Shown here piece by piece: positions 12,325-60,212 of a stretch of 63,428 bases of DNA (positions are counted from its first letter, which is position 1; the number at the start of each line of letters is the position of its first letter). A program made the translations under genes and the position numbers. The DNA comes from Escherichia coli. GTDB taxonomy: Bacteria > Pseudomonadota > Gammaproteobacteria > Enterobacterales > Enterobacteriaceae. Location of the stretch: assembly GCF_024223415.1 (NCBI RefSeq), contig NZ_CP100504.1. One strand, written 5' to 3'. The notes under the pieces were generated by a model. The model was given only the letters and a program-made list of their open reading frames with translations. It was not told the origin of the DNA and did not search any database.

Positions 12325-12514
12325 TACAGGGGCAGGCGGTGGAGGCCGCCTGTCAGCCCGCGCGAAAACCCCTGGCAGGCTGACGCCTGCCGGAAGGGAA
12401 GCGGGCCACGCTGGCGCGTCGCCCGTTACCCTTCCCGTCTGTGATGTGTCTGACTCAGGAGTGTTTCTTTCTTATGTTATGGAACTGTTCCTGATGTTGT
12501 TGTTCCTTTATCTG

Positions 12515-13125
12515 CTGCTCTGATTCTGACTACTGCAGTGTTGTTCTGTCTGCCGGGCGCACCTTCGGCTCCCGGCTGCCTGGCGGCATCCGGTCGTCAG
12601 GCCCGACTCCGACAGGCAGCTGCTGGCGCACCCGCCAGTCTCCGCCGAACCCGCTGGCGCGGTTTCGGGCTGTCGCTACGGTCCGATGCGTGAAAACCCC
12701 GGGCTTGCAGCGACCGTTCCGGTCGCGCCGCCTCTGTCGCGCCGTGGCCTGCGCTCCAGGCATCCCGGCAAAAAGACGCCGGGATGTAAGGCGCAACGCC
12801 GTTTCGCAAACCGCGCTTCACGTCGTTGCTGCGGGTCCCTGCTCATTGCCTGCCGGGTGCCACACACCCGTATGAGTCCCTGTCGCCGGGGGCATAGACA
12901 GCCACAACCTGCCGCACTGACTGTCCAGGGTAAATGAACAGCCCACAAAATTTTTTACCCAAAACCCGGTAAAAAATTTTGCGTTCTGCCCAGGACAGGT
13001 GCGTCAGGCCGTGGCAGTGATGCCCCTTGCGGCGAAGGTTCTCAAACGGGTGAAGTTCATACCACAGGGAATACAGCAGCAGGTTCCCGCGAAACGTCAA
13101 AACTGCGGCTCCCGAAACTCAACGG
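12515..13125. repeat. leading-region ~620-bp direct repeat, copy 1 (Frpo/ssi-like)
   Basis: Near-identical by eye to 15867-16496 and 21269-21897; GC-rich with internal hairpins such as aaaattttttacc-(9 nt)-ggtaaaaaatttt. Confidence 0.85.
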
Positions 13126-13363
13126 GTGATGTTCTTTAAAAATCAGGATTTATTTCAGGCTCCGGCAATACGCATTTATGTGTTCTGTCAGTCATCCGGC
13201 TGGCAGGTAATGAGAACGCAGGAACAGAAGGAGGAAAACACCGGAGAACGTCAGACGCAGATATGAAAAAAGCAGGTCAGGGACCTGCTTAATCCACGCC
13301 GTAAGAATTGCGCAACCAATTTTGACGGCATTGTTAACCAATTTGTCATAAGGAGTTTCATTT

Positions 13364-13594
13364 ATGACGGTAAGTATTGTTTCACCTTCCGCAGCGGCTG
13401 TAAAGCCCCGCCGTCATCCCCGTTTCAGACGCGAAGACATCCCCGCGCCGGAAATTGACCCCGTGCTGAAAGCCTTCGGGCGACACATAGCCCGGAGTTT
13501 TCACCGGGGGCGTGGTGTACACATCCCCGCCATGAAAAACACGGCCTTCGGGCAGGTGCTCCGCACACTCGAACTGAAACGCGCTTTTAACTGA
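13364..13594 (+). CDS. small basic hypothetical protein
   Basis: 76-aa ORF with RBS aggag 8 nt upstream; first ORF downstream of repeat copy 1. Confidence 0.4.
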   Translation: MTVSIVSPSAAAVKPRRHPRFRREDIPAPEIDPVLKAFGRHIARSFHRGRGVHIPAMKNTAFGQVLRTLELKRAFN

Positions 13595-15796: not shown

Positions 15797-15855
15797 CTGC
15801 TACTGCTACTGCTACTGCTACTGCTACTGCTACTGCTACTGCTACTGCTACTGCT
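15797..15855. repeat. hexanucleotide tandem repeat (CTGCTA)n, about 10 units
   Basis: ctgcta repeated in tandem immediately 5' of repeat copy 2; copies 1 and 3 have only a short unrepeated ctgct(g)ctc stretch at the equivalent position. Confidence 0.9.
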
Positions 15856-15866
15856 CTTCTTTTTCC

Positions 15867-16496
15867 TGCTGCTCTGATTCTGACTACTGCAGTGTTGTTC
15901 TGTCTGCCGGGCGCACCTTCGGCTCCCGGCTGCCTGGCGGCATCCGGTCGTCAGGCCCGACTCCGACAGGCAGCTGCTGGCGCACCTGCCAGTCTCCGCC
16001 GAACCCGCTGGCGCGGTTTCGGGCTGCCGCTACGGTCCGATGCGTGAAAACCCGGCTTGCAGCGACCGTTCCGGTCGCGCCGCCCCTGTCGCGCCGTGAC
16101 CTGCGCTCCAGGCATCCCGGCAAAAAGACGCCGGGATGTAAGGCGCAACGCCGTTTCGCAAACCGCGCTTCACGTCGTTGCGGCGGGTCCCTGCCCGTTG
16201 TTGTGTCCGGTGCCATTCACCTGTTTAAGCCCCTGTCGCCGGGGGCTGATACAGCCACAACCTGCCGCACTGACTGTCCAGGGTAAATGAACAGCCCACA
16301 AAATTTTTTACCCAAAACCCGGTAAAAAATTTTGCGTTCTGCCCAGGACAGGTGCGTCAGGCCGTGGCAGTGATGCCCCATGCGGCGAAGGTTCTCAAAC
16401 AGGTGATGGTGAATACCGGAGGGAACAAAGAGCAGGTCCCCGCAAAACGTCAAAACCGCGGCTCCCGAAACTCAACAGATGATGGGGGCTGAAAAC
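15867..16496. repeat. leading-region ~620-bp direct repeat, copy 2 (Frpo/ssi-like)
   Basis: Near-identical to copies 1 and 3; ends about 20 bp upstream of ssb. Confidence 0.85.
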
Positions 16497-17397: not shown

Positions 17398-19354
17398 ATG
17401 TCAGTTACAGAGTCTAAGACAAAAACGGAGCGTAAATCCAGCCGTAAACCTGCAAAAACGCAGGAAACTGCACTGTCTGCCCTGCTGGCGCAGACGGAGG
17501 AAGTGAGCGTGCCGCTGGATTCACTGATTAAATCACCGCTGAATGTGCGCACGGTGCCGTATTCTGCGGAGTCCGTCAGTGAACTGGCTGATTCCATTAA
17601 GGGAGTCGGCCTGCTGCAGAATCTGGTTGTTCATGCCCTGCCAGGTGACCGTTACGGTGTCGCCGCAGGTGGTCGCCGACTGGCAGCACTCAACATGCTG
17701 GCAGAGCGTGACATCATTCAGGCTGACTGGCCTGTCCGCGTGAAAATTATTCCGCAGGAGCTGGCGACGGCTGCATCGATGACCGAGAACGGTCATCGTC
17801 GGGATATGCACCCTGCCGAACAGATTGCCGGATTCCGTGCAATGGCGCAGGAAGGCAAAACGCCTGCACAAATCGGTGATTTGCTGGGCTATTCACCCCG
17901 CCACGTTCAGCGAATGCTGAAACTGGCAGACCTTGCGCCTGTCATCCTCGATGCGCTGGCAGAAGACCGCATCACCACAGAACACTGTCAGGCGCTGGCG
18001 CTGGAGAACGACACCGCGCGTCAGGTGCAGGTGTTTGACGCTGCCTGTCAGTCGGGATGGGGCGGTAAACCGGATGTGCGGGTTATCCGCAATCTGATTA
18101 CGGAAAGTGAAGTGGCGGTGGCGGGGAACAGTAAATTCCGCTTCGTGGGGGCTGATGCTTTCTCGCCAGACGAACTGCGCACCGATTTGTTCAGCGACGA
18201 CGAGGGTGGCTATGTCGACCGCGTGGCGCTCGATGCTGCCCTGCTGGAAAAACTCCAGGCTGTCGCTGAACACCTTCGGGAAGCCGAAGGCTGGGAATGG
18301 TGCGCCGGACGCATGGAGCCTGTCGGTGAGTGTCGTGAGGATGCCGGAACCTACTGCTGTCTGCCGGAGCCGGAAGCGGTGCTGACGGAGGCGGAAGAAG
18401 AACGCCTGAACGAACTGATGACGCGTTACGACGCGCTGGAAAACCAGTGTGAGGAATCCGACCTGCTGGAAGCAGAAATGAAGCTGATGCGCTGCATGGC
18501 GAAGGTCAGGGCGTGGACGCCGGAGATGCGTGCCGGAAGCGGTGTCGTGGTGTCCTGGCGTTACGGTAATGTGTGTCCAGCGTGGTGTGCAGTTGCGCAG
18601 TGAAGATGACGCGGCTGACGACGCTGACCGCACGGAACAGGTGCAGGAGAAAGCATCAGTGGAGGAAATCAGTCTGCCGTTGCTGACGAAAATGTCCTCA
18701 GAGCGCACGCTGGCAGTCCAGGCGGCACTCATGCAGCAGCCGGACAAATCTCTGGCACTGGTGGCATGGACGCTCTGCCTGAATGTGTTTGGCAGCGGGG
18801 CGTACAGTAAACCAGCACAAATCAGCCTGGAATGTGAACATTATTCGCTGACCAGCGATGCGCCATCGGGGAAGGAAGGTGCCGCATTCATGGCGCTGAT
18901 TGCAGAAAAAGCCCGTCTTGCTGCCCTGTTACCGGAGGGATGGTCACGGGACATGACGACATTCCTTTCACTCAGTCAGGAGGTGCTGTTATCCCTGCTC
19001 AGTTTCTGCACCGCATGCAGCCTTAACGGTGTCCAGACCCGTGAGTGTGGTCACACGTCACGCAGTCCGCTTGACTCGCTGGAAACCGCTATCGGATTCC
19101 ACATGCGCGACTGGTGGCAGCCGACAAAAGCAAACTTCTTCGGACACCTGAAAAAGCCGCAGATTATCGCAGCCCTGAATGAGGCAGGACTGTCCGGTGC
19201 CGCACGGGACGCGGAGAAGATGAAGAAAGGTGATGCGGCTGAACATGCAGAGCACCATATGAAAGACAACCGCTGGGTTCCAGGCTGGATGTGTGCACCA
19301 CATCCACAGACAGATGCCACTGAACGCACCGATAACCTGGCTGATGCCGCCTGA
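17398..19354 (+). pseudogene. ParB-like nuclease domain protein, reading frame interrupted
   Basis: Two overlapping ORFs (17398-18603 and 18530-19354) in different frames; the frame switch maps to a gtgtgt dinucleotide run near 18575; joined length ~650 aa. Confidence 0.6.
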
Positions 19355-20997: not shown

Positions 20998-21268
20998 CAA
21001 CCTGGAGGCGGGCGCAGGCCCGCCTTTTCAGGACTGATGCTGGTCTGACTACTGAAGCGCCTTTATAAAGGGGCTGCTGGTTCGCCGGTAGCCCCTTTCT
21101 CCTTGCTGATGTTGTACGGGCATGAACAACCTGACTTCAGGAAGGTCGTTTCCCTTCAGGAACGGGGATGAACGCGCGCCTGCGGCGCCCGTTCTTTTCC
21201 CCCGCCTTCTCTGGTTATGGCCTGTCAGAAATCACATCACCTTCCCTGTGATTATTCTCTTTTTCTTC

Positions 21269-21897
21269 CTGCTCTGATTCTGACTACTGCAGTGTTGTCC
21301 TGTCTGCCGGCGCACCTTCGGCTCCCGGCTGCCTGGCGGCATCCGGTCGTCAGGCCCGACTCCGACAGGCAGCTGCTGGCGCACCTGCCAGTCTCCGCCG
21401 AACCCGCTGGCGCGGTTTCGGGCTGTCGCTACGGTCCGATGCGTGAAAACCCCGGGCTTGCAGCGACCGTTCCGGTCGCGCCGCCTCTGTCGCGCCGTGG
21501 CCTGCGCTCCAGGCATCCCGGCAAAAAGACGCCGGGATGTAAGGCGCAACGCCGTTTCGCAAACCGCGCTTCACGTCGTTGCGGCGGGTCCCTGCCCGTT
21601 GTTGTGTCCGGTGCCATTCACCTGTTTAAGCCCCTGTCGCCGGGGGCTGATACAGCCACAACCTGCCGCACTGACTGTCCAGGGTAAATGAACAGCCCAC
21701 AAAATTTTTTACCCAAAACCCGGTAAAAAATTTTGCGTTCTGCCCAGGACAGGTGCGTCAGGCCGTGGCAGTGATGCCCCTTGCGGCGAAGGTTCTCAAA
21801 CAGGTGATGGTGAATACCGGAGGGAACAAAGAGCAGGTCCCCGCAAAACGTCAAAACCGCGGCTCCCGAAACTCAACAGATGATGGGGGCTGAAAAC
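21269..21897. repeat. leading-region ~620-bp direct repeat, copy 3 (Frpo/ssi-like)
   Basis: Near-identical to copies 1 and 2; ends about 20 bp upstream of the ORF at 21918. Confidence 0.85.
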
Positions 21898-45696: not shown

Positions 45697-48515
45697 ATGA
45701 AGTTTATGTGATTGCCGGTGGTGAGTGGTTGCGGAATAACCTGAATGCCATTGCCGCCTTTATGGGAACCAGAACGTGGGATTCCATTGAAAAAATTGCG
45801 CTCACATTGTCTGTTCTCGCGGTGGCCGTAATGTGGGTACAGCGGCACAACGTGATGGATTTGCTGGGCTGGGTGGCCGTGTTTGTGCTTATCAGCCTGC
45901 TGGTTAATGTCCGTACATCGGTGCAGATTATTGATAACAGTGACCTGGTCAAAGTTCACCGGGTGGATAATGTGCCGGTCGGACTGGCGATGCCACTTTC
46001 ACTGACGACCCGTATCGGGCATGCAATGGTGGCCAGTTACGAGATGATCTTCACGCAACCGGACAGTGTCACCTACAGCAAAACGGGGATGCTGTTTGGC
46101 GCAGAACTGGTATCAAAAAGCACCGACTTTTTGTCCCGTAATCCGGAAATCGCCAATCTTTTCCAGGATTATGTGCAGAACTGCGTGATGGGGGATATTT
46201 ACCTGAACCACAAATATACGCTGGAGGAGCTGATGGCCTCCGCTGATCCCTACACGCTGATTTTTTCCCGCCCCAGCCCGCTGCGGGGCGTTTATGACAG
46301 CAATAATAATTTCGTAACCTGTAAGGACGCTTCGGTTTCGCTGAAAGACAAGCTGAATCTGGACACACAGAGTGGCGGAAAAACCTGGCATTATTATGCC
46401 CAGCAGCTATTTGGCGGACGCCCTGATCCTAACCTGCTGTTCAGTACGCTGATTGGCGACAGTTACAGTTACTTCTATGGCTCAAGTAAATCAGCCAGCC
46501 AGATCATCCGCCAGAATGTCACCATCAATGCGCTGAAGGAGGGGATCACCAGTTATGCCGCACGTAATGGTGATTCGGCCAGCCTGGTGAATCTGGCCAC
46601 CACGTCATCGATGGAGAAACAACGTCTGGCACATGTATCAATCGGTCATGTGGCGATGCGGACACTGCCCATGACGCAGACCATCCTGACGGGGATCGCC
46701 ATCGGTATTTTCCCGCTCCTGGTACTGGCGGCTGTATTCAACAAACTGACGCTGTCCGTCCTGAAAGGCTATGTGTTTGCCCTGATGTGGTTGCAGTCAT
46801 GGCCAATGTTGTACGCCATTCTGAACAGCGCCATGACATTTTATGCAAAGCAGAATGGTGCACCGGTGGTGCTCTCGGAAATTTCACAGATACAGCTGAA
46901 ATACTCCGATCTGGCTTCCACTGCCGGGTATCTTTCCATGATGATCCCGCCATTATCCTGGATGATGGTCAGGGGGCTCGGGGCAGGATTTTCCAGTGTG
47001 TACAGCCATTTCGCTTCCTCTGCTATCAGCCCGACCGCCAGTGCAGCAGGCAGTGTGGTTGACGGTAATTACTCCTACGGCAACATGCAGACGGAGAACG
47101 TGAACGGCTTCAGCTGGAGCACCAACAGCACCACGTCGTTTGGTCAGATGATGTACCAGACCGGCAGTGGCGCAACTGCCACACAGACCCGTGACGGTAA
47201 TATGGTGATGGATGCAAGCGGAGCGATGTCCCGGTTACCGGTCGGCATCAATGCAACGCGTCAGATTGCGGCGGCACAACAGGAAATGGCCCGGGAAGCA
47301 TCGAACAGAGCAGAAAGTGCCCTGCATGGGTTCAGCAGCAGTATTGCCAGTGCCTGGAACACGCTCAGTCAGTTTGGTTCTAACCGGGGGAGCAGTGATT
47401 CTGTCACCGGTGGTGCTGACAGTACGATGAGTGCACAGGACTCCATGATGGCCAGCCGTATGCGCAGTGCAGTGGAAAGCTATGCGAAGGCGCATAATAT
47501 CAGTAATGAGCAGGCGACTCAGGAACTGGCATCCAGAAGTACGAGAGCTTCTGCCGGGATGTATGGAGATGCTCATGCTGAATGGGGGGTTAAACCTGGA
47601 ATTCTTGGTGTTGGTGGCGGCTTAGGTGTTAAAGGTGGTGGTCGCGCTGGTATTGATTGGGAAGATAATGATGCGCATACGGCAAGTAGTAATACTCAGT
47701 CGAGCCATAATGCTCGTCATGATATCGATGCCAGAGCTACACAAGACTTTAAAGAGGCCAGCGATTACTTTACCAGTCGCAAGGTCAGTGAGTCCGGCAG
47801 CCATACTGACAATAATGCTGATTCCCGTGTGGATCAGTTGTCTGCAGCCCTGAATTCAGCGAAGCAGAGTTACGACCAGTTCACGACGAATATGACCCGC
47901 AGCCATGAATATGCTGAAATGGCATCCCGTACTGAAAGCATGAGTGGGCAGATGAGTGAAGACCTGTCGCAACAGTTTGCACAGTATGTGATGAAACACG
48001 CGCCGCAGGATGCCGAAGCTATTCTGACAAACACCAGTTCACCGGAGATTGCAGAACGCCGTCGGGCTATGGCGTGGTCTTTTGTTCAGGAACAGGTGCA
48101 GCCTGGTGTTGATAATGCCTGGCGTGAATCCCGTGGGGACATCGGTAAAGGAATGGAGAGCGTACCTTCGGGTGGTGGCAGCCAGGATATTATTGCTGAT
48201 CATCAGGGGCATCAGGCCATTATTGAGCAAAGAACGCAGGACAGTAATATCCGTAATGATGTAAAACATCAGGTTGATAATATGGTCACAGAATACCGAG
48301 GCAATATCGGAGATACTCAGAGCAGCATACGTGGCGAAGAAAATATTGTAGGAAGACAGTATTCTGAACTACAAAATCACCATAAAACAGAGGCATTATC
48401 TCAGAATAATAAATATAATGAAGAAAAATCGGGTCAGGAAAGAATGCCCGGGGCTGACAGTCCACAGGAACTGATGAAAAGAGCAAAGGAGTATCAGGAT
48501 AAGCACAAGCAATAA
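45693..48515 (+). CDS. traG: TraG (pilus assembly, mating-pair stabilisation, entry-exclusion target)
   Basis: 940 aa with N-terminal polytopic domain and large periplasmic C-terminal domain. Confidence 0.95.
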   Translation: MNEVYVIAGGEWLRNNLNAIAAFMGTRTWDSIEKIALTLSVLAVAVMWVQRHNVMDLLGWVAVFVLISLLVNVRTSVQIIDNSDLVKVHRVDNVPVGLAMPLSLTTRIGHAMVASYEMIFTQPDSVTYSKTGMLFGAELVSKSTDFLSRNPEIANLFQDYVQNCVMGDIYLNHKYTLEELMASADPYTLIFSRPSPLRGVYDSNNNFVTCKDASVSLKDKLNLDTQSGGKTWHYYAQQLFGGRPDPNLLFSTLIGDSYSYFYGSSKSASQIIRQNVTINALKEGITSYAARNGDSASLVNLATTSSMEKQRLAHVSIGHVAMRTLPMTQTILTGIAIGIFPLLVLAAVFNKLTLSVLKGYVFALMWLQSWPMLYAILNSAMTFYAKQNGAPVVLSEISQIQLKYSDLASTAGYLSMMIPPLSWMMVRGLGAGFSSVYSHFASSAISPTASAAGSVVDGNYSYGNMQTENVNGFSWSTNSTTSFGQMMYQTGSGATATQTRDGNMVMDASGAMSRLPVGINATRQIAAAQQEMAREASNRAESALHGFSSSIASAWNTLSQFGSNRGSSDSVTGGADSTMSAQDSMMASRMRSAVESYAKAHNISNEQATQELASRSTRASAGMYGDAHAEWGVKPGILGVGGGLGVKGGGRAGIDWEDNDAHTASSNTQSSHNARHDIDARATQDFKEASDYFTSRKVSESGSHTDNNADSRVDQLSAALNSAKQSYDQFTTNMTRSHEYAEMASRTESMSGQMSEDLSQQFAQYVMKHAPQDAEAILTNTSSPEIAERRRAMAWSFVQEQVQPGVDNAWRESRGDIGKGMESVPSGGGSQDIIADHQGHQAIIEQRTQDSNIRNDVKHQVDNMVTEYRGNIGDTQSSIRGEENIVGRQYSELQNHHKTEALSQNNKYNEEKSGQERMPGADSPQELMKRAKEYQDKHKQ

Positions 48516-49015: not shown

Positions 49016-49063
49016 ATCTTAATTTGTATATTATGACGTTTTATTCAATATGAAGGAACATTG

Positions 49064-49795
49064 ATGAAAATGAAAAAATTGATGATGGTTGCACTGGTCA
49101 GTTCCACTCTGGCCCTTTCAGGGTGTGGTGCGATGAGCACAGCAATCAAGAAGCGTAACCTTGAGGTGAAGACTCAGATGAGTGAGACCATCTGGCTTGA
49201 ACCCGCCAGCGAACGCACGGTATTTCTGCAGATCAAAAACACGTCTGATAAAGACATGAGTGGGCTGCAGGGTAAAATTGCTGATGCTGTGAAAGCAAAA
49301 GGATATCAGGTGGTGACTTCTCCGGATAAAGCCTACTACTGGATTCAGGCGAATGTGCTGAAGGCCGATAAGATGGATCTGCGGGAGTCTCAGGGATGGC
49401 TGAACCGTGGTTATGAAGGCGCAGCTGTTGGTGCAGCGTTAGGTGCCGGTATTACCGGCTATAACTCAAATTCTGCCGGTGCCACACTCGGTGTAGGCCT
49501 TGCTGCTGGTCTGGTGGGTATGGCTGCAGATGCGATGGTGGAAGATGTGAACTATACCATGATCACGGATGTGCAGATTGCAGAGCGTACTAAGGCAACG
49601 GTGACAACGGATAATGTTGCCGCCCTGCGTCAGGGCACATCAGGTGCGAAAATTCAGACCAGTACTGAAACGGGTAACCAGCATAAATACCAGACCCGTG
49701 TGGTCTCAAATGCGAACAAGGTTAACCTGAAATTTGAAGAGGCGAAGCCTGTTCTCGAAGACCAGCTGGCCAAATCAATCGCAAATATTCTCTGA
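49064..49795 (+). CDS. traT: surface exclusion lipoprotein TraT
   Basis: 243 aa from [26 protein letters not shown] (lipobox); matches TraT. Confidence 0.95.
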
Positions 49796-49910: not shown

Positions 49911-49997
49911 ATATGAAAACACTGAGCGGTTGTGCAAATTCTTTGTGCGACCGTGAAGTGTTGCCGGCGAAGCCGGGATCTTCCGGAGAAAGTCATT

Positions 49998-50735
49998 ATG
50001 ACATCAGACAATATCGCTGAATATGTTGGTGAGAATAATCAATTTACTGAGAAGCCTGTAACTGAATACCCCCCGGTGATACAGGATAATACAGTGACGA
50101 CTAAAGATTATCTGTACAGCAATAATATTGATACTGACCTTTTAGTGGTTATCGGAGGGCTTATTGTTATATTGTTTCTCATGATGCTTATCATGTACTT
50201 TATTAATTCTCTCAGGCATAAGGAATTAACTGAAATACTGACAAAAATATCTTTTCCTGAAAAATCCGGGAGCAATTCGCTTAAACCGGAAGCGGTCAGC
50301 TGTAATTTGTTGTCCCTGTGTGTGCTGGCACCGGTATTCTGTACACCCAGAAAGCTGGCAGAAGTCTCCAGGGAGATCATCGTGGCGAGTGCGCAGGAAA
50401 TTGCATGGACGCCGGGGAGCAGTCGTATTGATGGCCACCAGGCGGAGAATATCACCTGGGCGATTTCATCGCAGTCTCCTGCCGATAAGTATGATCTCAT
50501 CAATAAAACGTCCCGTGTTTCTCCTGACAGTGGCCGTTTTTATGAACCGGACACAGTTCTGGATCACCGTGAACGGGTACGCCTTTTTATTCAGATCCAG
50601 TTTCCGCATGGGAGTGACTGGTCTGAAGTATTGCGCCTGACTGACATTGTTACAGAGAAGGTCTCTTCCGGCAGGACTGCAGGCGGGTATCACCACCGGC
50701 ATACAGGGTACACCTGGTCTGTTTCTGTGAATTAA
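49998..50735 (+). CDS. hypothetical single-pass membrane protein (cargo between traT and traD)
   Basis: ~245 aa from MTSDNIAEY; one TM helix ([22 protein letters not shown]); AT-rich; preceded by motif copy A. Confidence 0.55.
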
Positions 50736-50785: not shown

Positions 50786-52777
50786 ATGAGTTTTAACGCA
50801 AAGGATATGACCCAGGGCGGTCAGATTGCGTCCATGCGTATCCGCATGTTCAGCCAGATCGCCAATATCATGCTTTACTGCCTGTTTATTTTTTTCTGGA
50901 TACTCGTTGGTCTGATTTTATGGGTAAAAATAAGCTGGCAGACGTTTGTGAACGGCTGTATTTACTGGTGGTGTACCACGCTGGAAGGCATGCGGGATTT
51001 AATCAAGTCCCAGCCAGTATATGAGATTCAGTATTACGGCAAAACCTTCCGGATGAACTCTGCCCAGGTACTGCATGATAAATATATGATCTGGTGCGGT
51101 GAGCAGCTATGGTCCGCATTCGTTCTGGCGTCTGTCGTGGCCCTGGTTATTTGCCTGATCACCTTCTTTGTTGTCTCCTGGATTCTGGGGCGTCAGGGTA
51201 AACAACAGAGCGAAAATGAAGTCACAGGTGGTCGTCAGCTGACAGACAATCCGAAAGACGTTGCCCGGATGCTGAAAAAAGACGGCAAGGACTCCGATAT
51301 CCGGATTGGCGACCTGCCGATTATCCGGGATTCCGAAATCCAGAACTTCTGTCTGCACGGCACGGTCGGGGCCGGTAAGTCGGAGGTTATCCGTCGTCTG
51401 GCCAACTACGCCCGTCAGCGCGGTGATATGGTGGTGATTTATGACCGTTCAGGGGAATTTGTTAAAAGTTACTATGATCCCTCCATCGATAAAATCCTGA
51501 ATCCGCTGGATGCCCGCTGTGCCGCATGGGATTTGTGGAAGGAGTGTCTGACACAGCCGGATTTTGATAATACCGCAAATACTCTGATCCCTATGGGTAC
51601 AAAAGAGGACCCGTTCTGGCAGGGTTCAGGACGTACCATTTTTGCGGAAGCGGCGTACCTGATGCGTAATGACCCCAACCGCAGCTACAGCAAACTGGTG
51701 GACACACTGCTTTCCATCAAAATCGAAAAACTGCGTACCTTCCTGCGTAATTCTCCGGCGGCCAACCTGGTGGAAGAGAAAATTGAGAAAACGGCGATTT
51801 CCATCCGTGCTGTGCTGACCAACTACGTGAAAGCCATCCGTTACCTGCAGGGGATTGAGCATAACGGTGAGCCCTTCACCATACGTGACTGGATGCGTGG
51901 TGTCCGGGAAGATCAGAAAAACGGCTGGCTGTTTATTTCGTCGAACGCCGACACCCATGCCTCCCTGAAGCCGGTGATCTCCATGTGGCTGTCCATTGCC
52001 ATTCGTGGTCTGCTGGCAATGGGAGAAAACCGTAACCGTCGTGTGTGGTTTTTCTGTGATGAGTTACCCACGTTACACAAACTGCCGGACCTGGTGGAGA
52101 TCCTGCCGGAAGCCCGTAAGTTCGGTGGCTGTTATGTGTTTGGTATCCAGTCCTATGCCCAGCTGGAAGATATCTACGGTGAGAAAGCGGCGGCCACGCT
52201 GTTTGACGTCATGAACACCCGTGCTTTTTTCCGTTCCCCGAGCCATAAGATTGCAGAGTTCGCTGCCGGTGAGATTGGTGAGAAAGAGCACCTGAAAGCC
52301 AGCGAGCAGTATTCCTACGGTGCTGACCCGGTACGTGACGGGGTATCGACCGGTAAGGATATGGAGCGTCAGACGCTGGTCAGTTATTCCGACATTCAGT
52401 CTCTGCCGGATCTGACCTGCTATGTCACTCTGCCCGGACCGTATCCGGCAGTAAAACTCTCCCTGAAATATCAGGCACGACCGAAGGTCGCTCCGGAGTT
52501 TATTCCGCGTGACATCAACCCGGAAATGGAGAACCGTCTGAGTGCCGTACTTGCCGCAAGGGAAGCAGAAGGTCGTCAGATGGCCAGCCTCTTTGAACCG
52601 GAGGTTGCCTCCGGAGAAGATGTGACTCAGGCTGAACAGCCACAACAGCCACAACAGCCACAACAGCCACAACAGCCACAACAGCCACAACAGCCGGTGT
52701 CTCCTGCCATCAACGATAAGAAGTCAGATTCAGGTGTGAATGTTCCGGCAGGGGGATCGAGCAGGAGCTGGAAATGA
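50786..52777 (+). CDS. traD: type IV coupling protein TraD
   Basis: 663 aa with N-terminal TM segments, Walker A GTVGAGKS and a C-terminal QPQ repeat tail. Confidence 0.95.
52637..52690. repeat. 9-bp tandem repeat (cagccacaa)n inside traD
   Basis: About six tandem units encoding the (QPQ)n tract in the TraD C-terminal tail. Confidence 0.9.
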
Positions 52778-52974
52778 AACCGGAAGAAGAGATGGAACAG
52801 CAACTGCCACCCGGGATCAGTGAATCCGGTGAAGTGGTGGATATGGCCGCTTATGAGGCATGGCAACAGGAAAATCATCCGGACATCCAGCAGCAGATGC
52901 AGCGTCGTGAAGAGGTGAACATTAATGTGCACCGGGAGCGTGGGGAGGATGTTGAGCCGGGAGATGATTTCTGA
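52774..52974 (+). CDS. small acidic hypothetical protein between traD and traI
   Basis: 66-aa ORF overlapping the traD stop and ending exactly at the traI start. Confidence 0.45.
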
Positions 52975-55900
52975 TGATGAGTATCGCGCAGGTCAGATCG
53001 GCCGGAAGTGCCGGTAACTATTATACCGACAAGGATAATTACTATGTACTGGGCAGCATGGGAGAACGCTGGGCCGGCAGGGGGGCTGAACAGCTGGGAC
53101 TGCAGGGCAGTGTCGATAAGGATGTTTTTACCCGTCTTCTGGAGGGAAGGCTGCCGGACGGAGCGGATCTAAGCCGCATGCAGGATGGCAGTAATAAGCA
53201 TCGTCCCGGCTACGACCTGACCTTCTCCGCCCCCAAAAGTGTCTCCATGATGGCCATGCTCGGGGGGGACAAACGTCTTATTGAAGCACATAACCAGGCC
53301 GTGGACTTTGCTGTTCGTCAGGTGGAGGCGCTGGCCTCCACACGGGTGATGACGGACGGACAGTCAGAAACGGTACTGACCGGTAATCTGGTGATGGCAC
53401 TGTTTAACCACGACACCAGTCGCGATCAGGAACCACAGTTACATACGCATGCGGTGGTGGCTAATGTCACGCAGCATAACGGTGAGTGGAAGACACTGAG
53501 CAGTGACAAAGTGGGGAAAACGGGGTTCATTGAGAATGTGTACGCTAATCAGATTGCCTTTGGCAGGCTCTACCGGGAAAAACTGAAAGAGCAGGTTGAG
53601 GCGCTGGGCTATGAAACCGAAGTGGTGGGTAAGCACGGTATGTGGGAGATGCCGGGCGTACCGGTGGAGGCCTTTTCCGGACGCTCACAGACTATCCGGG
53701 AGGCCGTCGGGGAAGATGCCTCGCTGAAATCCCGGGATGTGGCGGCACTGGATACGCGAAAATCCAAACAGCACGTCGATCCTGAAGTCAGAATGGCTGA
53801 ATGGATGCAGACGCTGAAGGAAACCGGGTTCGACATCCGGGCATATCGTGACGCGGTGGATCAGCGTGCGGAGACCCGCACGCAGGCGCCCGGGGCTGTT
53901 TCACAGGAGGGGCCGGATGTGCAGCAGGCGGTGACACAGGCGATTGCCGGATTAAGTGAACGAAAAATGCAGTTTACGTACACGGACGTGCTGGCCAGAA
54001 CGGTCGGTATACTGCCGCCGGAAAATGGTGTGATTGAACGGGCACGCGCCGGTATCGATGAGGCCATCAGTCGTGAGCAGCTTATCCCCCTCGACCGTGA
54101 GAAGGGGCTGTTCACATCAGGAATTCATGTGCTCGATGAGCTGTCCGTCCGGGCACTCAGTCGTGACATCATGAAACAGAACCGGGTGACCGTACATCTG
54201 GAGAAAAGTGTCCCCCGGACGGCTGGTTACAGCGATGCGGTCAGTGTTCTGGCACAGGACCGTCCGTCGCTGGCCATTGTGTCCGGGCAGGGCGGTGCAG
54301 CCGGGCAGCGTGAGCGGGTGGCTGAACTGGTCATGATGGCCCGGGAGCAGGGGCGGGAGGTGCAGATTATCGCCGCTGACCGTCGCTCGCAGATGAACCT
54401 GAAGCAGGATGAACGGCTGTCCGGTGAGCTGATAACCGGACGTCGTCAGCTGCAGGAGGGCATGGCCTTCACGCCGGGCAGTACTGTTATCGTCGACCAG
54501 GGCGAAAAACTCTCCCTGAAAGAGACGTTAACCCTGCTGGACGGTGCCGCACGTCATAACGTACAGGTCCTGATAACCGACAGCGGGCAGCGAACCGGTA
54601 CAGGCAGTGCACTGATGGCCATGAAGGATGCCGGGGTGAACACGTATCGCTGGCAGGGCGGAGAACAGCGACCGGCCACCATCATCAGTGAACCGGACCG
54701 GAATGTCCGCTATGACCGGCTGGCCGGAGATTTTGCGGCCAGCGTGAAAGCCGGAGAAGAGAGCGTGGCACAGGTCAGCGGGGTACGGGAACAGGCCATA
54801 CTGACACAGGCCATTCGCAGTGAGCTGAAAACACAGGGCGTGCTCGGACACCCGGAGGTGACCATGACGGCACTGTCACCGGTCTGGCTGGACAGCCGGA
54901 GCCGTTATCTGCGGGATATGTACCGACCGGGGATGGTGATGGAGCAGTGGAACCCGGAGACACGCAGTCATGACCGCTATGTTATCGACCGGGTGACGGC
55001 GCAGAGTCACAGCCTGACCCTGCGGGATGCGCAGGGCGAAACGCAGGTGGTGCGTATTTCCTCCCTGGACAGCAGCTGGTCGCTGTTCCGGCCGGAAAAA
55101 ATGCCGGTGGCAGACGGCGAGCGACTGAGGGTGACAGGGAAAATTCCCGGACTCCGCGTCTCCGGCGGTGACCGCCTGCAGGTGGCATCCGTCAGTGAAG
55201 ATGCGATGACGGTTGTTGTGCCGGGGCGGGCTGAACCGGCCACCCTGCCTGTGGCTGATTCACCGTTCACGGCACTGAAGCTGGAGAACGGCTGGGTGGA
55301 AACGCCCGGGCATTCCGTCAGCGACAGTGCGAAGGTTTTTGCCTCCGTCACACAGATGGCAATGGACAACGCCACCCTGAACGGTCTGGCCCGCAGTGGT
55401 CGTGATGTCCGGCTGTATTCTTCACTGGATGAAACCCGTACTGCGGAAAAACTTGCCCGCCATCCCTCCTTTACGGTGGTTTCTGAGCAGATAAAGGCGC
55501 GTGCCGGTGAGACATTGCTGGAAACCGCTATCAGTCTGCAGAAAGCCGGGCTTCACACGCCGGCACAGCAGGCTATTCATCTGGCCCTTCCTGTGCTGGA
55601 AAGTAAAAACCTGGCCTTCAGCATGGTGGACCTGCTGACAGAGGCGAAGTCGTTTGCTGCAGAAGGAACCAGTTTTACTGAACTGGGAGGGGAAATCAAT
55701 GCGCAGATAAAACGCGGTGATTTACTGTATGTGGATGTGGCAAAAGGCTATGGCACAGGCCTGCTGGTTTCCCGTGCGTCGTATGAGGCAGAAAAGAGCA
55801 TTCTTCGCCATATTCTCGAAGGTAAGGAGGCGGTCACGCCGCTGATGGAGAGAGTACCTGGCGAACTCATGGAGAAACTGACATCAGGACAGCGTGCCGC

Positions 55901-58244
55901 CACCCGCATGATACTGGAAACGTCCGACCGTTTCACGGTGGTGCAGGGCTATGCCGGTGTGGGTAAGACCACACAGTTCCGGGCGGTGATGTCAGCCGTG
56001 AACATGCTGCCGGAGAGTGAGCGTCCCCGTGTCGTTGGGCTGGGTCCCACGCACCGCGCGGTCGGGGAGATGCGCAGCGCCGGCGTGGATGCACAGACAC
56101 TGGCGTCCTTTCTGCATGACACGCAGCTGCAGCAGCGCAGCGGAGAAACGCCGGATTTCAGCAACACGCTGTTCCTGCTCGATGAGAGCTCAATGGTGGG
56201 CAATACCGACATGGCACGGGCATACGCCCTGATTGCGGCCGGTGGCGGTCGTGCTGTGGCCAGCGGTGACACGGACCAGCTGCAGGCCATCGCGCCCGGT
56301 CAGCCTTTCCGTCTCCAGCAGACGCGCAGTGCTGCCGATGTGGTCATCATGAAGGAGATTGTGCGTCAGACGCCGGAACTGCGGGAGGCGGTATACAGCC
56401 TGATTAACCGGGATGTGGAAAGGGCACTGTCCGGGCTTGAGAGTGTGAAACCGTCTCAGGTTCCCCGTCAGGAGGGCGCATGGGCACCGGAGCACTCCGT
56501 GACGGAGTTCAGTCACAGCCAGGAAGCGAAACTGGCAGAAGCGCAGCAGAAGGCGATGCTGAAAGGCGAGGCTTTCCCGGATATCCCCATGACACTGTAT
56601 GAAGCCATTGTCCGCGACTATACCGGCAGGACACCGGAAGCACGGGAGCAGACGCTGATTGTCACACACCTGAATGAGGACCGGCGCGTACTGAACAGCA
56701 TGATTCATGATGCACGGGAAAAGGCCGGTGAGCTGGGCAAAGAGCAGGTCATGGTGCCTGTCCTGAACACAGCGAATATACGTGACGGAGAACTGCGTCG
56801 TCTCTCCACCTGGGAGAATAACCCGGATGCCCTTGCCCTGGTGGATAGTGTGTATCACCGGATTGCCGGTATCAGCAAGGATGACGGGCTGATAACCCTG
56901 GAGGATGCGGAAGGTAACACGCGGCTGATTTCGCCCCGGGAGGCGGTGGCTGAAGGCGTCACACTGTACACCCCGGACACCATCCGGGTGGGAACCGGTG
57001 ACCGGATGCGCTTCACGAAGAGTGACCGGGAGCGCGGTTATGTGGCCAACAGCGTCTGGACGGTGACAGCGGTTTCCGGTGACAGTGTCACGCTGTCGGA
57101 CGGACAGCAGACCCGGGTGATTCGCCCCGGTCAGGAGCGGGCAGAGCAACATATTGACCTGGCTTATGCCATCACCGCCCACGGTGCGCAGGGGGCAAGT
57201 GAAACCTTTGCCATCGCGCTTGAAGGCACGGAAGGTAACCGGAAACTGATGGCAGGCTTTGAGTCAGCTTATGTAGCCCTGTCGCGTATGAAGCAGCATG
57301 TGCAGGTGTACACCGATAACCGTCAGGGCTGGACGGATGCCATCAACAATGCCGTACAGAAAGGAACTGCCCACGATGTGTTTGAACCGAAACCGGACCG
57401 GGAGGTCATGAATGCAGAGCGGCTGTTCAGTACGGCGCGGGAGCTGCGGGACGTGGCGGCAGGCCGTGCCGTTCTTCGTCAGGCGGGACTTGCCGGGGGA
57501 GACAGTCCTGCACGGTTTATTGCTCCGGGACGTAAATATCCGCAACCGTATGTGGCACTGCCGGCTTTTGACCGTAACGGCAGGTCCGCCGGTATCTGGC
57601 TGAACCCGCTGACCACGGATGACGGAAACGGGCTGCGGGGATTCAGCGGTGAAGGCCGGGTGAAAGGCAGCGGGGATGCACAGTTTGTGGCCCTGCAGGG
57701 CAGCCGTAACGGAGAGAGCCTGCTGGCTGATAATATGCAGGATGGTGTCCGGATTGCCCGTGATAATCCTGACAGCGGTGTGGTGGTGAGAATCGCCGGT
57801 GAAGGCCGTCCGTGGAATCCCGGTGCCATCACCGGTGGTCGCGTGTGGGGGGATATCCCGGACAACAGCGTCCAGCCGGGGGCCGGAAATGGTGAACCGG
57901 TTACAGCTGAAGTGCTGGCACAGCGGCAGGCTGAAGAGGCCATCCGCCGTGAAACGGAACGTCGCGCAGATGAAATTGTCCGTAAAATGGCAGAGAACAA
58001 ACCTGACCTGCCGGATGGCAGAACAGAGCAGGCTGTCAGGGAGATTGCCGGGCAGGAGCGTGACCGGGCTGCCATAACTGAACGGGAAGCCGCGCTGCCG
58101 GAGAGTGTGCTGCGTGAATCACAACGGGAGCGGGAAGCGGTCCGGGAGGTTGCCCGGGAAAATCTGCTGCAGGAGCGTCTGCAGCAGATGGAGCGGGATA
58201 TGGTCCGTGACCTGCAGAAAGAGAAAACCCTGGGCGGAGACTGA
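52974..58244 (+). CDS. traI: relaxase/helicase TraI
   Basis: 1756 aa starting [27 protein letters not shown] (relaxase domain) followed by helicase motifs. Confidence 0.95.
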   Translation: MMSIAQVRSAGSAGNYYTDKDNYYVLGSMGERWAGRGAEQLGLQGSVDKDVFTRLLEGRLPDGADLSRMQDGSNKHRPGYDLTFSAPKSVSMMAMLGGDKRLIEAHNQAVDFAVRQVEALASTRVMTDGQSETVLTGNLVMALFNHDTSRDQEPQLHTHAVVANVTQHNGEWKTLSSDKVGKTGFIENVYANQIAFGRLYREKLKEQVEALGYETEVVGKHGMWEMPGVPVEAFSGRSQTIREAVGEDASLKSRDVAALDTRKSKQHVDPEVRMAEWMQTLKETGFDIRAYRDAVDQRAETRTQAPGAVSQEGPDVQQAVTQAIAGLSERKMQFTYTDVLARTVGILPPENGVIERARAGIDEAISREQLIPLDREKGLFTSGIHVLDELSVRALSRDIMKQNRVTVHLEKSVPRTAGYSDAVSVLAQDRPSLAIVSGQGGAAGQRERVAELVMMAREQGREVQIIAADRRSQMNLKQDERLSGELITGRRQLQEGMAFTPGSTVIVDQGEKLSLKETLTLLDGAARHNVQVLITDSGQRTGTGSALMAMKDAGVNTYRWQGGEQRPATIISEPDRNVRYDRLAGDFAASVKAGEESVAQVSGVREQAILTQAIRSELKTQGVLGHPEVTMTALSPVWLDSRSRYLRDMYRPGMVMEQWNPETRSHDRYVIDRVTAQSHSLTLRDAQGETQVVRISSLDSSWSLFRPEKMPVADGERLRVTGKIPGLRVSGGDRLQVASVSEDAMTVVVPGRAEPATLPVADSPFTALKLENGWVETPGHSVSDSAKVFASVTQMAMDNATLNGLARSGRDVRLYSSLDETRTAEKLARHPSFTVVSEQIKARAGETLLETAISLQKAGLHTPAQQAIHLALPVLESKNLAFSMVDLLTEAKSFAAEGTSFTELGGEINAQIKRGDLLYVDVAKGYGTGLLVSRASYEAEKSILRHILEGKEAVTPLMERVPGELMEKLTSGQRAATRMILETSDRFTVVQGYAGVGKTTQFRAVMSAVNMLPESERPRVVGLGPTHRAVGEMRSAGVDAQTLASFLHDTQLQQRSGETPDFSNTLFLLDESSMVGNTDMARAYALIAAGGGRAVASGDTDQLQAIAPGQPFRLQQTRSAADVVIMKEIVRQTPELREAVYSLINRDVERALSGLESVKPSQVPRQEGAWAPEHSVTEFSHSQEAKLAEAQQKAMLKGEAFPDIPMTLYEAIVRDYTGRTPEAREQTLIVTHLNEDRRVLNSMIHDAREKAGELGKEQVMVPVLNTANIRDGELRRLSTWENNPDALALVDSVYHRIAGISKDDGLITLEDAEGNTRLISPREAVAEGVTLYTPDTIRVGTGDRMRFTKSDRERGYVANSVWTVTAVSGDSVTLSDGQQTRVIRPGQERAEQHIDLAYAITAHGAQGASETFAIALEGTEGNRKLMAGFESAYVALSRMKQHVQVYTDNRQGWTDAINNAVQKGTAHDVFEPKPDREVMNAERLFSTARELRDVAAGRAVLRQAGLAGGDSPARFIAPGRKYPQPYVALPAFDRNGRSAGIWLNPLTTDDGNGLRGFSGEGRVKGSGDAQFVALQGSRNGESLLADNMQDGVRIARDNPDSGVVVRIAGEGRPWNPGAITGGRVWGDIPDNSVQPGAGNGEPVTAEVLAQRQAEEAIRRETERRADEIVRKMAENKPDLPDGRTEQAVREIAGQERDRAAITEREAALPESVLRESQREREAVREVARENLLQERLQQMERDMVRDLQKEKTLGGD

Positions 58245-59755: not shown

Positions 59756-59968
59756 ATGAATGGATTCAGAAACAGTTCACGGAACGGTCAGGTCTGGCGC
59801 TGGCAGCGTGCCGGAAGCCGGGCCGTTATTCTGGAGGTCAGTGGACGCTGGATGGAAGCGGCAGAAGCATGGCGACGGGCTGCCGGTGTTGCACCCCGGA
59901 CAGACTGGCAGCAGTTTGCCCGAAAAAGGGCTGAACAATGCCACCGACGCTGCCGGGGAAGGGTGTAA
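59756..59968 (+). CDS. small Arg/Trp-rich hypothetical protein
   Basis: 70-aa ORF with strong RBS agaggag 8 nt upstream. Confidence 0.45.
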   Translation: MNGFRNSSRNGQVWRWQRAGSRAVILEVSGRWMEAAEAWRRAAGVAPRTDWQQFARKRAEQCHRRCRGRV

Positions 59969-60212
59969 CGAAAAAGCAGCCTTCATTACTCCAGGGATTC
60001 AGAAGGCTGAATAATGCATGAGATTTGCTTTTTTTAATATCCGGTCGGGCAGTATGACCGGACAGTTCTGAGTAGCACAGAGTTTTTTCCGTATTAAGTC
60101 GTGATTTTATATTTTGTGATTAATTTCGCAAAATAAGGTGTTATTCAGTGTGTGCTGCGATATTCAGGATTACCTGAAATACAGGTGCCATTTATCTGAT
60201 ATGGAGAATAAT

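Follow-up and report, generated by a model that had tools for sequence, protein, structure and literature searches.

An in-frame 9-nucleotide repeat of variable copy number in the traD gene of an IncFII plasmid from Escherichia coli

The traD gene and its repeat array

The stretch of DNA analyzed in this study (hereafter the window; 63,428 nucleotides of the E. coli contig NZ_CP100504.1) looks like a complete F-like plasmid of the IncFII type. In addition to the IncFII repA gene, full-length profile matches were obtained in it for traB, traC, traU, traN, traH, traG, traX and finO, and the RNAs FinP, traJ 5′ UTR, CopA and sok were found with Rfam. The features which are discussed below, including the genes traT, traD and traI in this order, are compiled in Table 1. 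That the gene between traT and traI encodes the TraD coupling protein of an F-like system had already been stated in a preliminary description of the sequence, and this assignment is well supported. The product of the open reading frame (ORF) reached 1529.7 bits with the NCBIfam model of F-type TraD (PRK13700, NF010254; cut-off 1221) and 836.6 bits with TIGR02759 (cut-off 521.35). It contains the Pfam domains TraD_N (residues 32-128), TrwB_AAD_bind (residues 172-561) and TraG-D_C, and both its Walker A motif (GTVGAGKS, from residue 192) and the Walker B residues D425-E426 (in FFCDELP, from residue 422) are invariant in an alignment of 31 sequences. Curated models, domains and Walker motifs as well as the position within the operon place the protein among the F-type coupling proteins. 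As written in the window, however, it is a frameshifted copy of traD.

Table 1. Features of the window that are referred to in the text (positions count from the first nucleotide of the window).
Feature	Position	Strand	Remarks
IncFII repA	1-858
Antisense RNA family AS-pc01	13267-13369	-	pHK01-derived
Leading-region element, three copies	12506-13131, 15859-16484, 21252-21897		about 630 bp
Second perfect array	15797-15855		CTGCTA x 9.8, 100% match; leading region
ParB/RepB/Spo0J-like gene	17398-19354		leading region; split into ORFs of 401 aa and 274 aa
Antisense RNA family AS-traG	46412-46497	-	pHK01-derived
traT	49061-49795
ORF between traT and traD	49932-50735		267 aa
traD as read in the window	50786-52777	+	663 aa: TraD_N membrane domain, TrwB-type ATPase, Gln/Pro tract; ends ...AGGSSRSWK*
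Tandem array, Gln/Pro tract	52635-52695	+	six CAGCCACAA at 52637-52690, terminal CAGCCG
G5 homopolymer	52751-52755	+	one-base deletion shifting the traD frame, by comparison with relatives
Detached TraD tail ORF	52774-52974	+	66 aa, coding part 52774-52971; TraD profile positions 670-735 of 735, E 1.9e-32
Last eight TraD codons, DVEPGDDF	52948-52971	+	match F TraD D710-F717, the peptide that binds the TraM tetramerisation domain (PMC3159463, PMC7555446)
traI	52974-58244
Antisense RNA family AS-traI	55823-55899	-	pHK01-derived
Antisense RNA family AS-pc02	59865-60048	-	pHK01-derived

No plasmid identical to the window was present in PLSDB, where the nearest backbones were pHK01/pKP04CTXM-like and pGZM7d-like. 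The four pHK01-derived antisense RNA families, all of which scored above their Rfam gathering scores, fit a pHK01-like backbone. From position 1 to 22 kb, the window is too divergent from pKP04CTXM for a comparison of indels. In this leading region, the ParB/RepB/Spo0J-like gene encodes 652 aa in pKP04CTXM, whereas in the window its frame changes near 18572-18576, which splits it in two. As the exact 401-aa product also occurs on another contig (GCA_900482235.1), this split may be a real allele. The three leading-region elements, which are probably single-strand promoter/ssi-type repeats, share 93-98% identity with the pKP04CTXM copies. The ORF situated between traT and traD has neither an NCBIfam nor a Pfam match, and relatives are annotated with a hypothetical protein of 245-259 aa in this interval. 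In F/ColV-type relatives (L022, L023, H128, H134, H147, H157, H170 and H173-H182) a vapBC toxin-antitoxin pair is located between traD and traI, which is absent from the window.

Close to the 3′ end of the traD ORF, six perfect head-to-tail units could be read directly from the window, exactly where the preliminary description had placed about six units of 9 bp. For the whole array, Tandem Repeats Finder yielded a period of 9 and 6.8 copies with 100% matches, zero indels and a score of 122, the extra 0.8 copy consisting of AA on the 5′ side and of the partial unit on the 3′ side of the six full units. An 18-mer of two units matched the window five times, always inside the array, compared to 0.00 matches expected from 100 dinucleotide-preserving shuffles, and identical head-to-tail units are therefore present far above chance. 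The array is in frame with traD. Its product QPQQP...QQP comprises 20 residues, corresponding to residues 618-637 of the repaired TraD (see below), which confirms the earlier claim that the repeat encodes the Gln/Pro tract of the C-terminal extension of TraD. All six full units use CCA for proline, and only the terminal partial unit contains CCG. The repeat is thus real and had been identified correctly in outline, yet it is already known from related plasmids. Two minus-strand ORFs which cross the array (52073-52690 and 52627-52932) were rejected as coding sequences, since they are the mere complement of the repeat and their length would change with the array.

One part of the preliminary description, the idea that the repeat region contacts TraM, had to be abandoned. 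In F, the contact is made by the extreme C-terminus of TraD, D710-F717, and in R1 the last 38 TraD residues are necessary and sufficient for it (PMC7555446, PMC3159463, PMC3338209). The tract is located 85 residues upstream of the corresponding octapeptide DVEPGDDF. In an AlphaFold2 model based on the 31-sequence alignment, a helix at residues 579-603 is predicted with confidence, as are the membrane and ATPase portions. Residues 604-674 exhibit a pLDDT below 50 and no secondary structure, and short helices follow at residues 687-711. The tract is accordingly placed by this model in a linker that is predicted to be disordered, a low pLDDT indicating disorder only indirectly. Among 31 TraD representatives, including those from Klebsiella, Serratia and Edwardsiella, the segment between the conserved motifs LFEP and GG.EQEL measures 41-110 aa, cannot be aligned and is rich in A, P, T, S and Q. 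When the C-terminal 169 residues were searched against PDB chains of at least 20 residues, nothing relevant was obtained, the only match being a Q/P-rich stretch of a herpesvirus tegument protein (E 1.9).

A shortened G run downstream of the array

The homopolymer of five G residues lies 56 nt 3′ of the array and is a G6 run in relatives with an intact traD. In the window, the TraD ORF stops early, and the last 66 TraD residues (MKPEEEM...EPGDDF) form a separate ORF, the ATG of which overlaps the premature TGA (AAATGAAAC). The TraM-binding tail is therefore not continuous with the ATPase body, as the G5 run puts it into another frame, and the Gln/Pro tract is, as written, unconnected to this tail. 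Compared to pGZM7d, the G5 run represents the sole uncompensated single-base indel across 38.5-63.4 kb of the window. The addition of one G restores a TraD of 729 aa with the same six units. This exact protein is found in GCA_040351145.1, whose traD differs from that of the window by one substitution and the G.

Over 8,580 bp, a short-read contig from the Logan assembly of ERR1156339 differs from the window solely by a G6 run. The G5 run of the window can thus be put down either to an error in homopolymer sequencing or to a recent, private mutation. An exact look-up of the truncated 663-aa TraD gave no matching record. G5 runs are also present in a few other records, of which L002, L006, L010 and L020 contain a visibly fragmented traI, and for L019 neither traD nor traI is listed in PLSDB. 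This suggests that the G5 run in those records is probably a homopolymer error. For the window itself we consider a genuine deletion possible, albeit rather doubtful.

If the deletion is real, self-transfer of the plasmid should drop strongly, as judged from published truncations: TraD1-576 complements a traD mutant of pOX38 at only about 1e-5, and the loss of the last nine TraD residues or a mutation of F717 also impairs transfer (PMC3338209). In this case, the ATGA overlap of stop and start codon might possibly allow the production of a free 66-residue tail peptide, which would compete for TraM. The feature of this plasmid that could matter for transfer is the one-base deletion and not the repeat, and the deletion needs to be confirmed before the plasmid is labelled conjugative.

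Unit number among relatives and the role of the tract

The preliminary description had assumed that the unit number is likely variable and had proposed a comparison across related plasmids as a check. This expectation was borne out. Direct counts of the full units in fetched relatives ranged from 1 to 40 (Table 2), although some of these counts could be wrong in public long-read assemblies, and the database match spans varied by exact multiples of 9 nt. Variation of this kind has also been compared in print before (PMC3245843, PMC6052338, PMC7311658).

Table 2. Full repeat units counted directly in the window and in relatives.
Units	Records	Remarks
1	L022, L023	F/ColV type, QPQQP; complete traD of L022 encodes 717 aa
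3	L016, L033, L034
5	L035
6	window, L017, L026
7	L013, L029-L032
8	L004, L028
9	L003
10	L019
13	L001
25	L024
33	L018
40	L015	intact 831-aa TraD by annotation

Counts derived from match spans, which are approximate and overshoot by one unit in the divergent F/ColV lineage, amounted to about 1-25 units (median 8) in an even sample of 58 PLSDB plasmids and to 3-40 units (median 14) among the best 60 complete-genome E. coli matches. The number of units also differed among otherwise near-identical sequences, as is characteristic of a variable-number tandem repeat: 36 plasmids of equal flank score contained 9-15 units, and eight contigs with an identical 940-aa TraG contained 3, 5, 7 or 8 units. This indicates that the turnover of the array outpaces point substitution. 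The match span of the one-unit F-type allele, in turn, was the same in all records sampled from its lineage. Repeats usually exhibit threshold behaviour, and the stability of this allele fits with it.

Two variants of the unit could be distinguished, one with CCA (A) and one with CCG (G), which occur in homogeneous blocks (A35G5 in L015, A29G4 in L018 and A2G1 in L016). This arrangement fits with local duplication and deletion of neighbouring units. In all three of these records the CCA units are located 5′ and the CCG units 3′. The single, ancestral-looking unit of the F-type alleles is of the CCG type.

In our view the array is very probably an in-frame 9-nt minisatellite of IncFII traD, the QQP tract of which lies in a disordered linker, gains and loses whole units and acts as a tolerant spacer. 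The linker would connect the hexameric ATPase body, whose end is near residue 603, with the short acidic tail by which TraD docks on oriT-bound TraM. As its units do not differ in their DNA sequence, the array would be able to gain and lose whole units; we infer replication slippage or an unequal exchange between plasmid copies as likely routes, and the steps of exactly one unit and the blocks of unit variants would support slippage indirectly. Each change would be a multiple of 3 nt and would thereby keep the frame and alter the length of the linker alone. With a weak constraint on this length, the array could drift over a wide range. The allele of the window would then combine six units with a separate one-base deletion in the G run further downstream, by which the TraM-binding tail would be uncoupled. 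The best-supported reading of the linker is that of a flexible spacer under weak constraint as to its exact length, which keeps the TraM-binding tail attached to the hexameric ATPase. A tolerant spacer of near-neutral length is suggested by the variability of the array together with the predicted disorder, and a flexible spacer is in keeping with the model of Wong et al., in which avidity and flexibility underlie the TraM-TraD interaction.

Alternatively, the length of the tract could be under diversifying selection, and the array would then be no neutral spacer but a locus of the contingency type by which function is modulated. Such an adjustment might affect how far the six TraD tails reach towards TraM-oriT complexes or how avidly they bind them, or the susceptibility to TraD-dependent RNA phages (R17/MS2). 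The very wide range of 1-40 units and their quick turnover on identical backbones would be in line with this idea, as would the reliance of TraM-TraD binding on flexibility and on weak tail contacts that act through avidity. Lang et al. (2011, PMC3245843) moreover suggested that the heterogeneity of the TraD C-terminus may underlie differences between F and R1, and that phage resistance may drive the diversification of type IV coupling proteins (T4CPs). Long alleles do stay in frame and are annotated as intact, but as a 9-nt unit never switches the gene off, their survival needs no selection. Furthermore, neither the length nor the sequence of the linker is constrained within the TraD family, and the database match tables showed no association of the unit number with the host or the source. 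We therefore regard selection on the tract length as unlikely. It likewise appears quite improbable that the length is non-neutral in the sense that the reach of the tail would tune relaxosome capture, self-transfer versus mobilisation, or RNA-phage sensitivity. If this were the case, IncF plasmids would carry a rapidly evolving "rheostat" of conjugation. No published functional test of the traD tract length was found in the literature searched.

It was also considered whether the six units could be a collapsed or mis-assembled longer array. The array often coincides with assembly breakpoints, as seen from 100 N in metagenome scaffolds, from a short-read contig starting inside it and from a cluster of 4,849 "partial" TraD sequences whose representative ends immediately before it. 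An artefact is nonetheless very unlikely for the window, since the array of 61 nt is shorter than ordinary reads, its units are perfect, its junctions with the flanking sequences are normal, and the six-unit allele is present in two independent records, L017 and L026, the latter with a product that matches the repaired 729-aa TraD exactly. Finally, a cis-acting nucleic-acid element (antisense RNA, promoter, terminator or structured DNA) which merely overlaps traD can practically be dismissed, as the presence of antisense RNAs within neighbouring tra genes (AS-traI and AS-traG elsewhere in the window; Rfam) and of minus-strand ORFs across the array is set against the absence of any Rfam family at the locus, promoter-like and terminator-like sites at chance level, a repeat strand that folds worse than shuffled sequence (z +1.48) and a range of 1-40 copies which a fixed function would not tolerate.

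For the tract as a tolerant spacer, which it probably is, the practical value of the array is larger than its biological novelty. As a hypervariable marker and one of the fastest-changing sites of IncF backbones, it can discriminate near-identical resistance plasmids; in plasmid phylogenies that are based on SNPs or indels it is best masked. The array was observed as a systematic breakpoint of assemblies (loci L005, L007-L009, L012, L014 and L025; protein cluster P0017), with short-read contigs that start inside it. Through this breakage of short-read assemblies, public databases contain thousands of entries called as "partial TraD" or as an orphan ORF of 66 aa; in the public collection, the index of the orphan tail ORF alone comprises 3,392 blocks.

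Comparison with known systems

With phase-variable contingency loci, the traD array shares a slippage-prone coding repeat and a high allelic diversity. These loci, however, switch genes on and off, whereas the 9-nt unit of traD never shifts the frame. Being a multiple of 3 nt, the unit cannot make the array an on/off switch, and the alleles with 1-40 units are indeed all in frame. The nearby G run of traD could shift the frame, but with 6 nt it is short for a phase-variable locus.

The membrane anchor and the ATPase and all-alpha domains of TraD are common to TrwB of R388 and to VirD4 (Pfam TrwB_AAD_bind, T4SS-DNA_transf). According to Lang et al. (2011, PMC3245843), the F-type C-terminal extension, which measures about 150-200 residues and in TraD contains both the Gln/Pro tract and the tail that binds TraM, is missing from these two proteins.

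A copy-number-variable repeat of 6 bp (GCTACT) has been described in yddA of IncFII F33 plasmids (PMC6052338). The second perfect array of the window, which lies within a poly-Leu ORF of 86 aa, corresponds to this repeat and is located on the same plasmid backbone as the traD array. The two arrays differ in gene, the yddA repeat belonging to the leading region, as well as in unit length and encoded sequence, and the yddA repeat has no known link to TraD.

The traD repeat itself has been reported for closely related plasmids. In a 2018 mSphere paper, the "No. of 9-bp repeats in traD" (CAACAGCCG) was listed, next to the 6-bp yddA repeat, among the few differences between F33:A-:B- plasmids that are only 3-8 nucleotides apart (PMC6052338). 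For plasmids from S. Enteritidis isolates that are close relatives, a study in Frontiers in Microbiology from 2020 gave 2, 6, 7 and 14 copies of the QPQ repeat of 9 bases (PMC7311658). The F33:A-:B- plasmids and the hybrid virulence plasmids of S. Enteritidis contain the same 9-bp unit of traD in a variable copy number. They use CCG units, whereas the full units of the window are of the CCA type.

At the protein level, the tract corresponds to the variable "QQP motif" of TraD, of which F has 5 residues and R1 has 23, and the role of its length was called "under investigation" by Lang et al. (2011, PMC3245843), who speculated that it may contribute to plasmid-specific behaviour and to phage resistance. 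Both the Gln/Pro tract and the variation of its copy number are thus already in print, and the locus adds little new biology. The tract of the window agrees with the motif of F and R1 in gene, in its position in the C-terminal extension and in the Gln-Gln-Pro periodicity. With 20 residues it is one unit shorter than that of R1; otherwise nothing essential differs, and the array represents one more allele of this motif.
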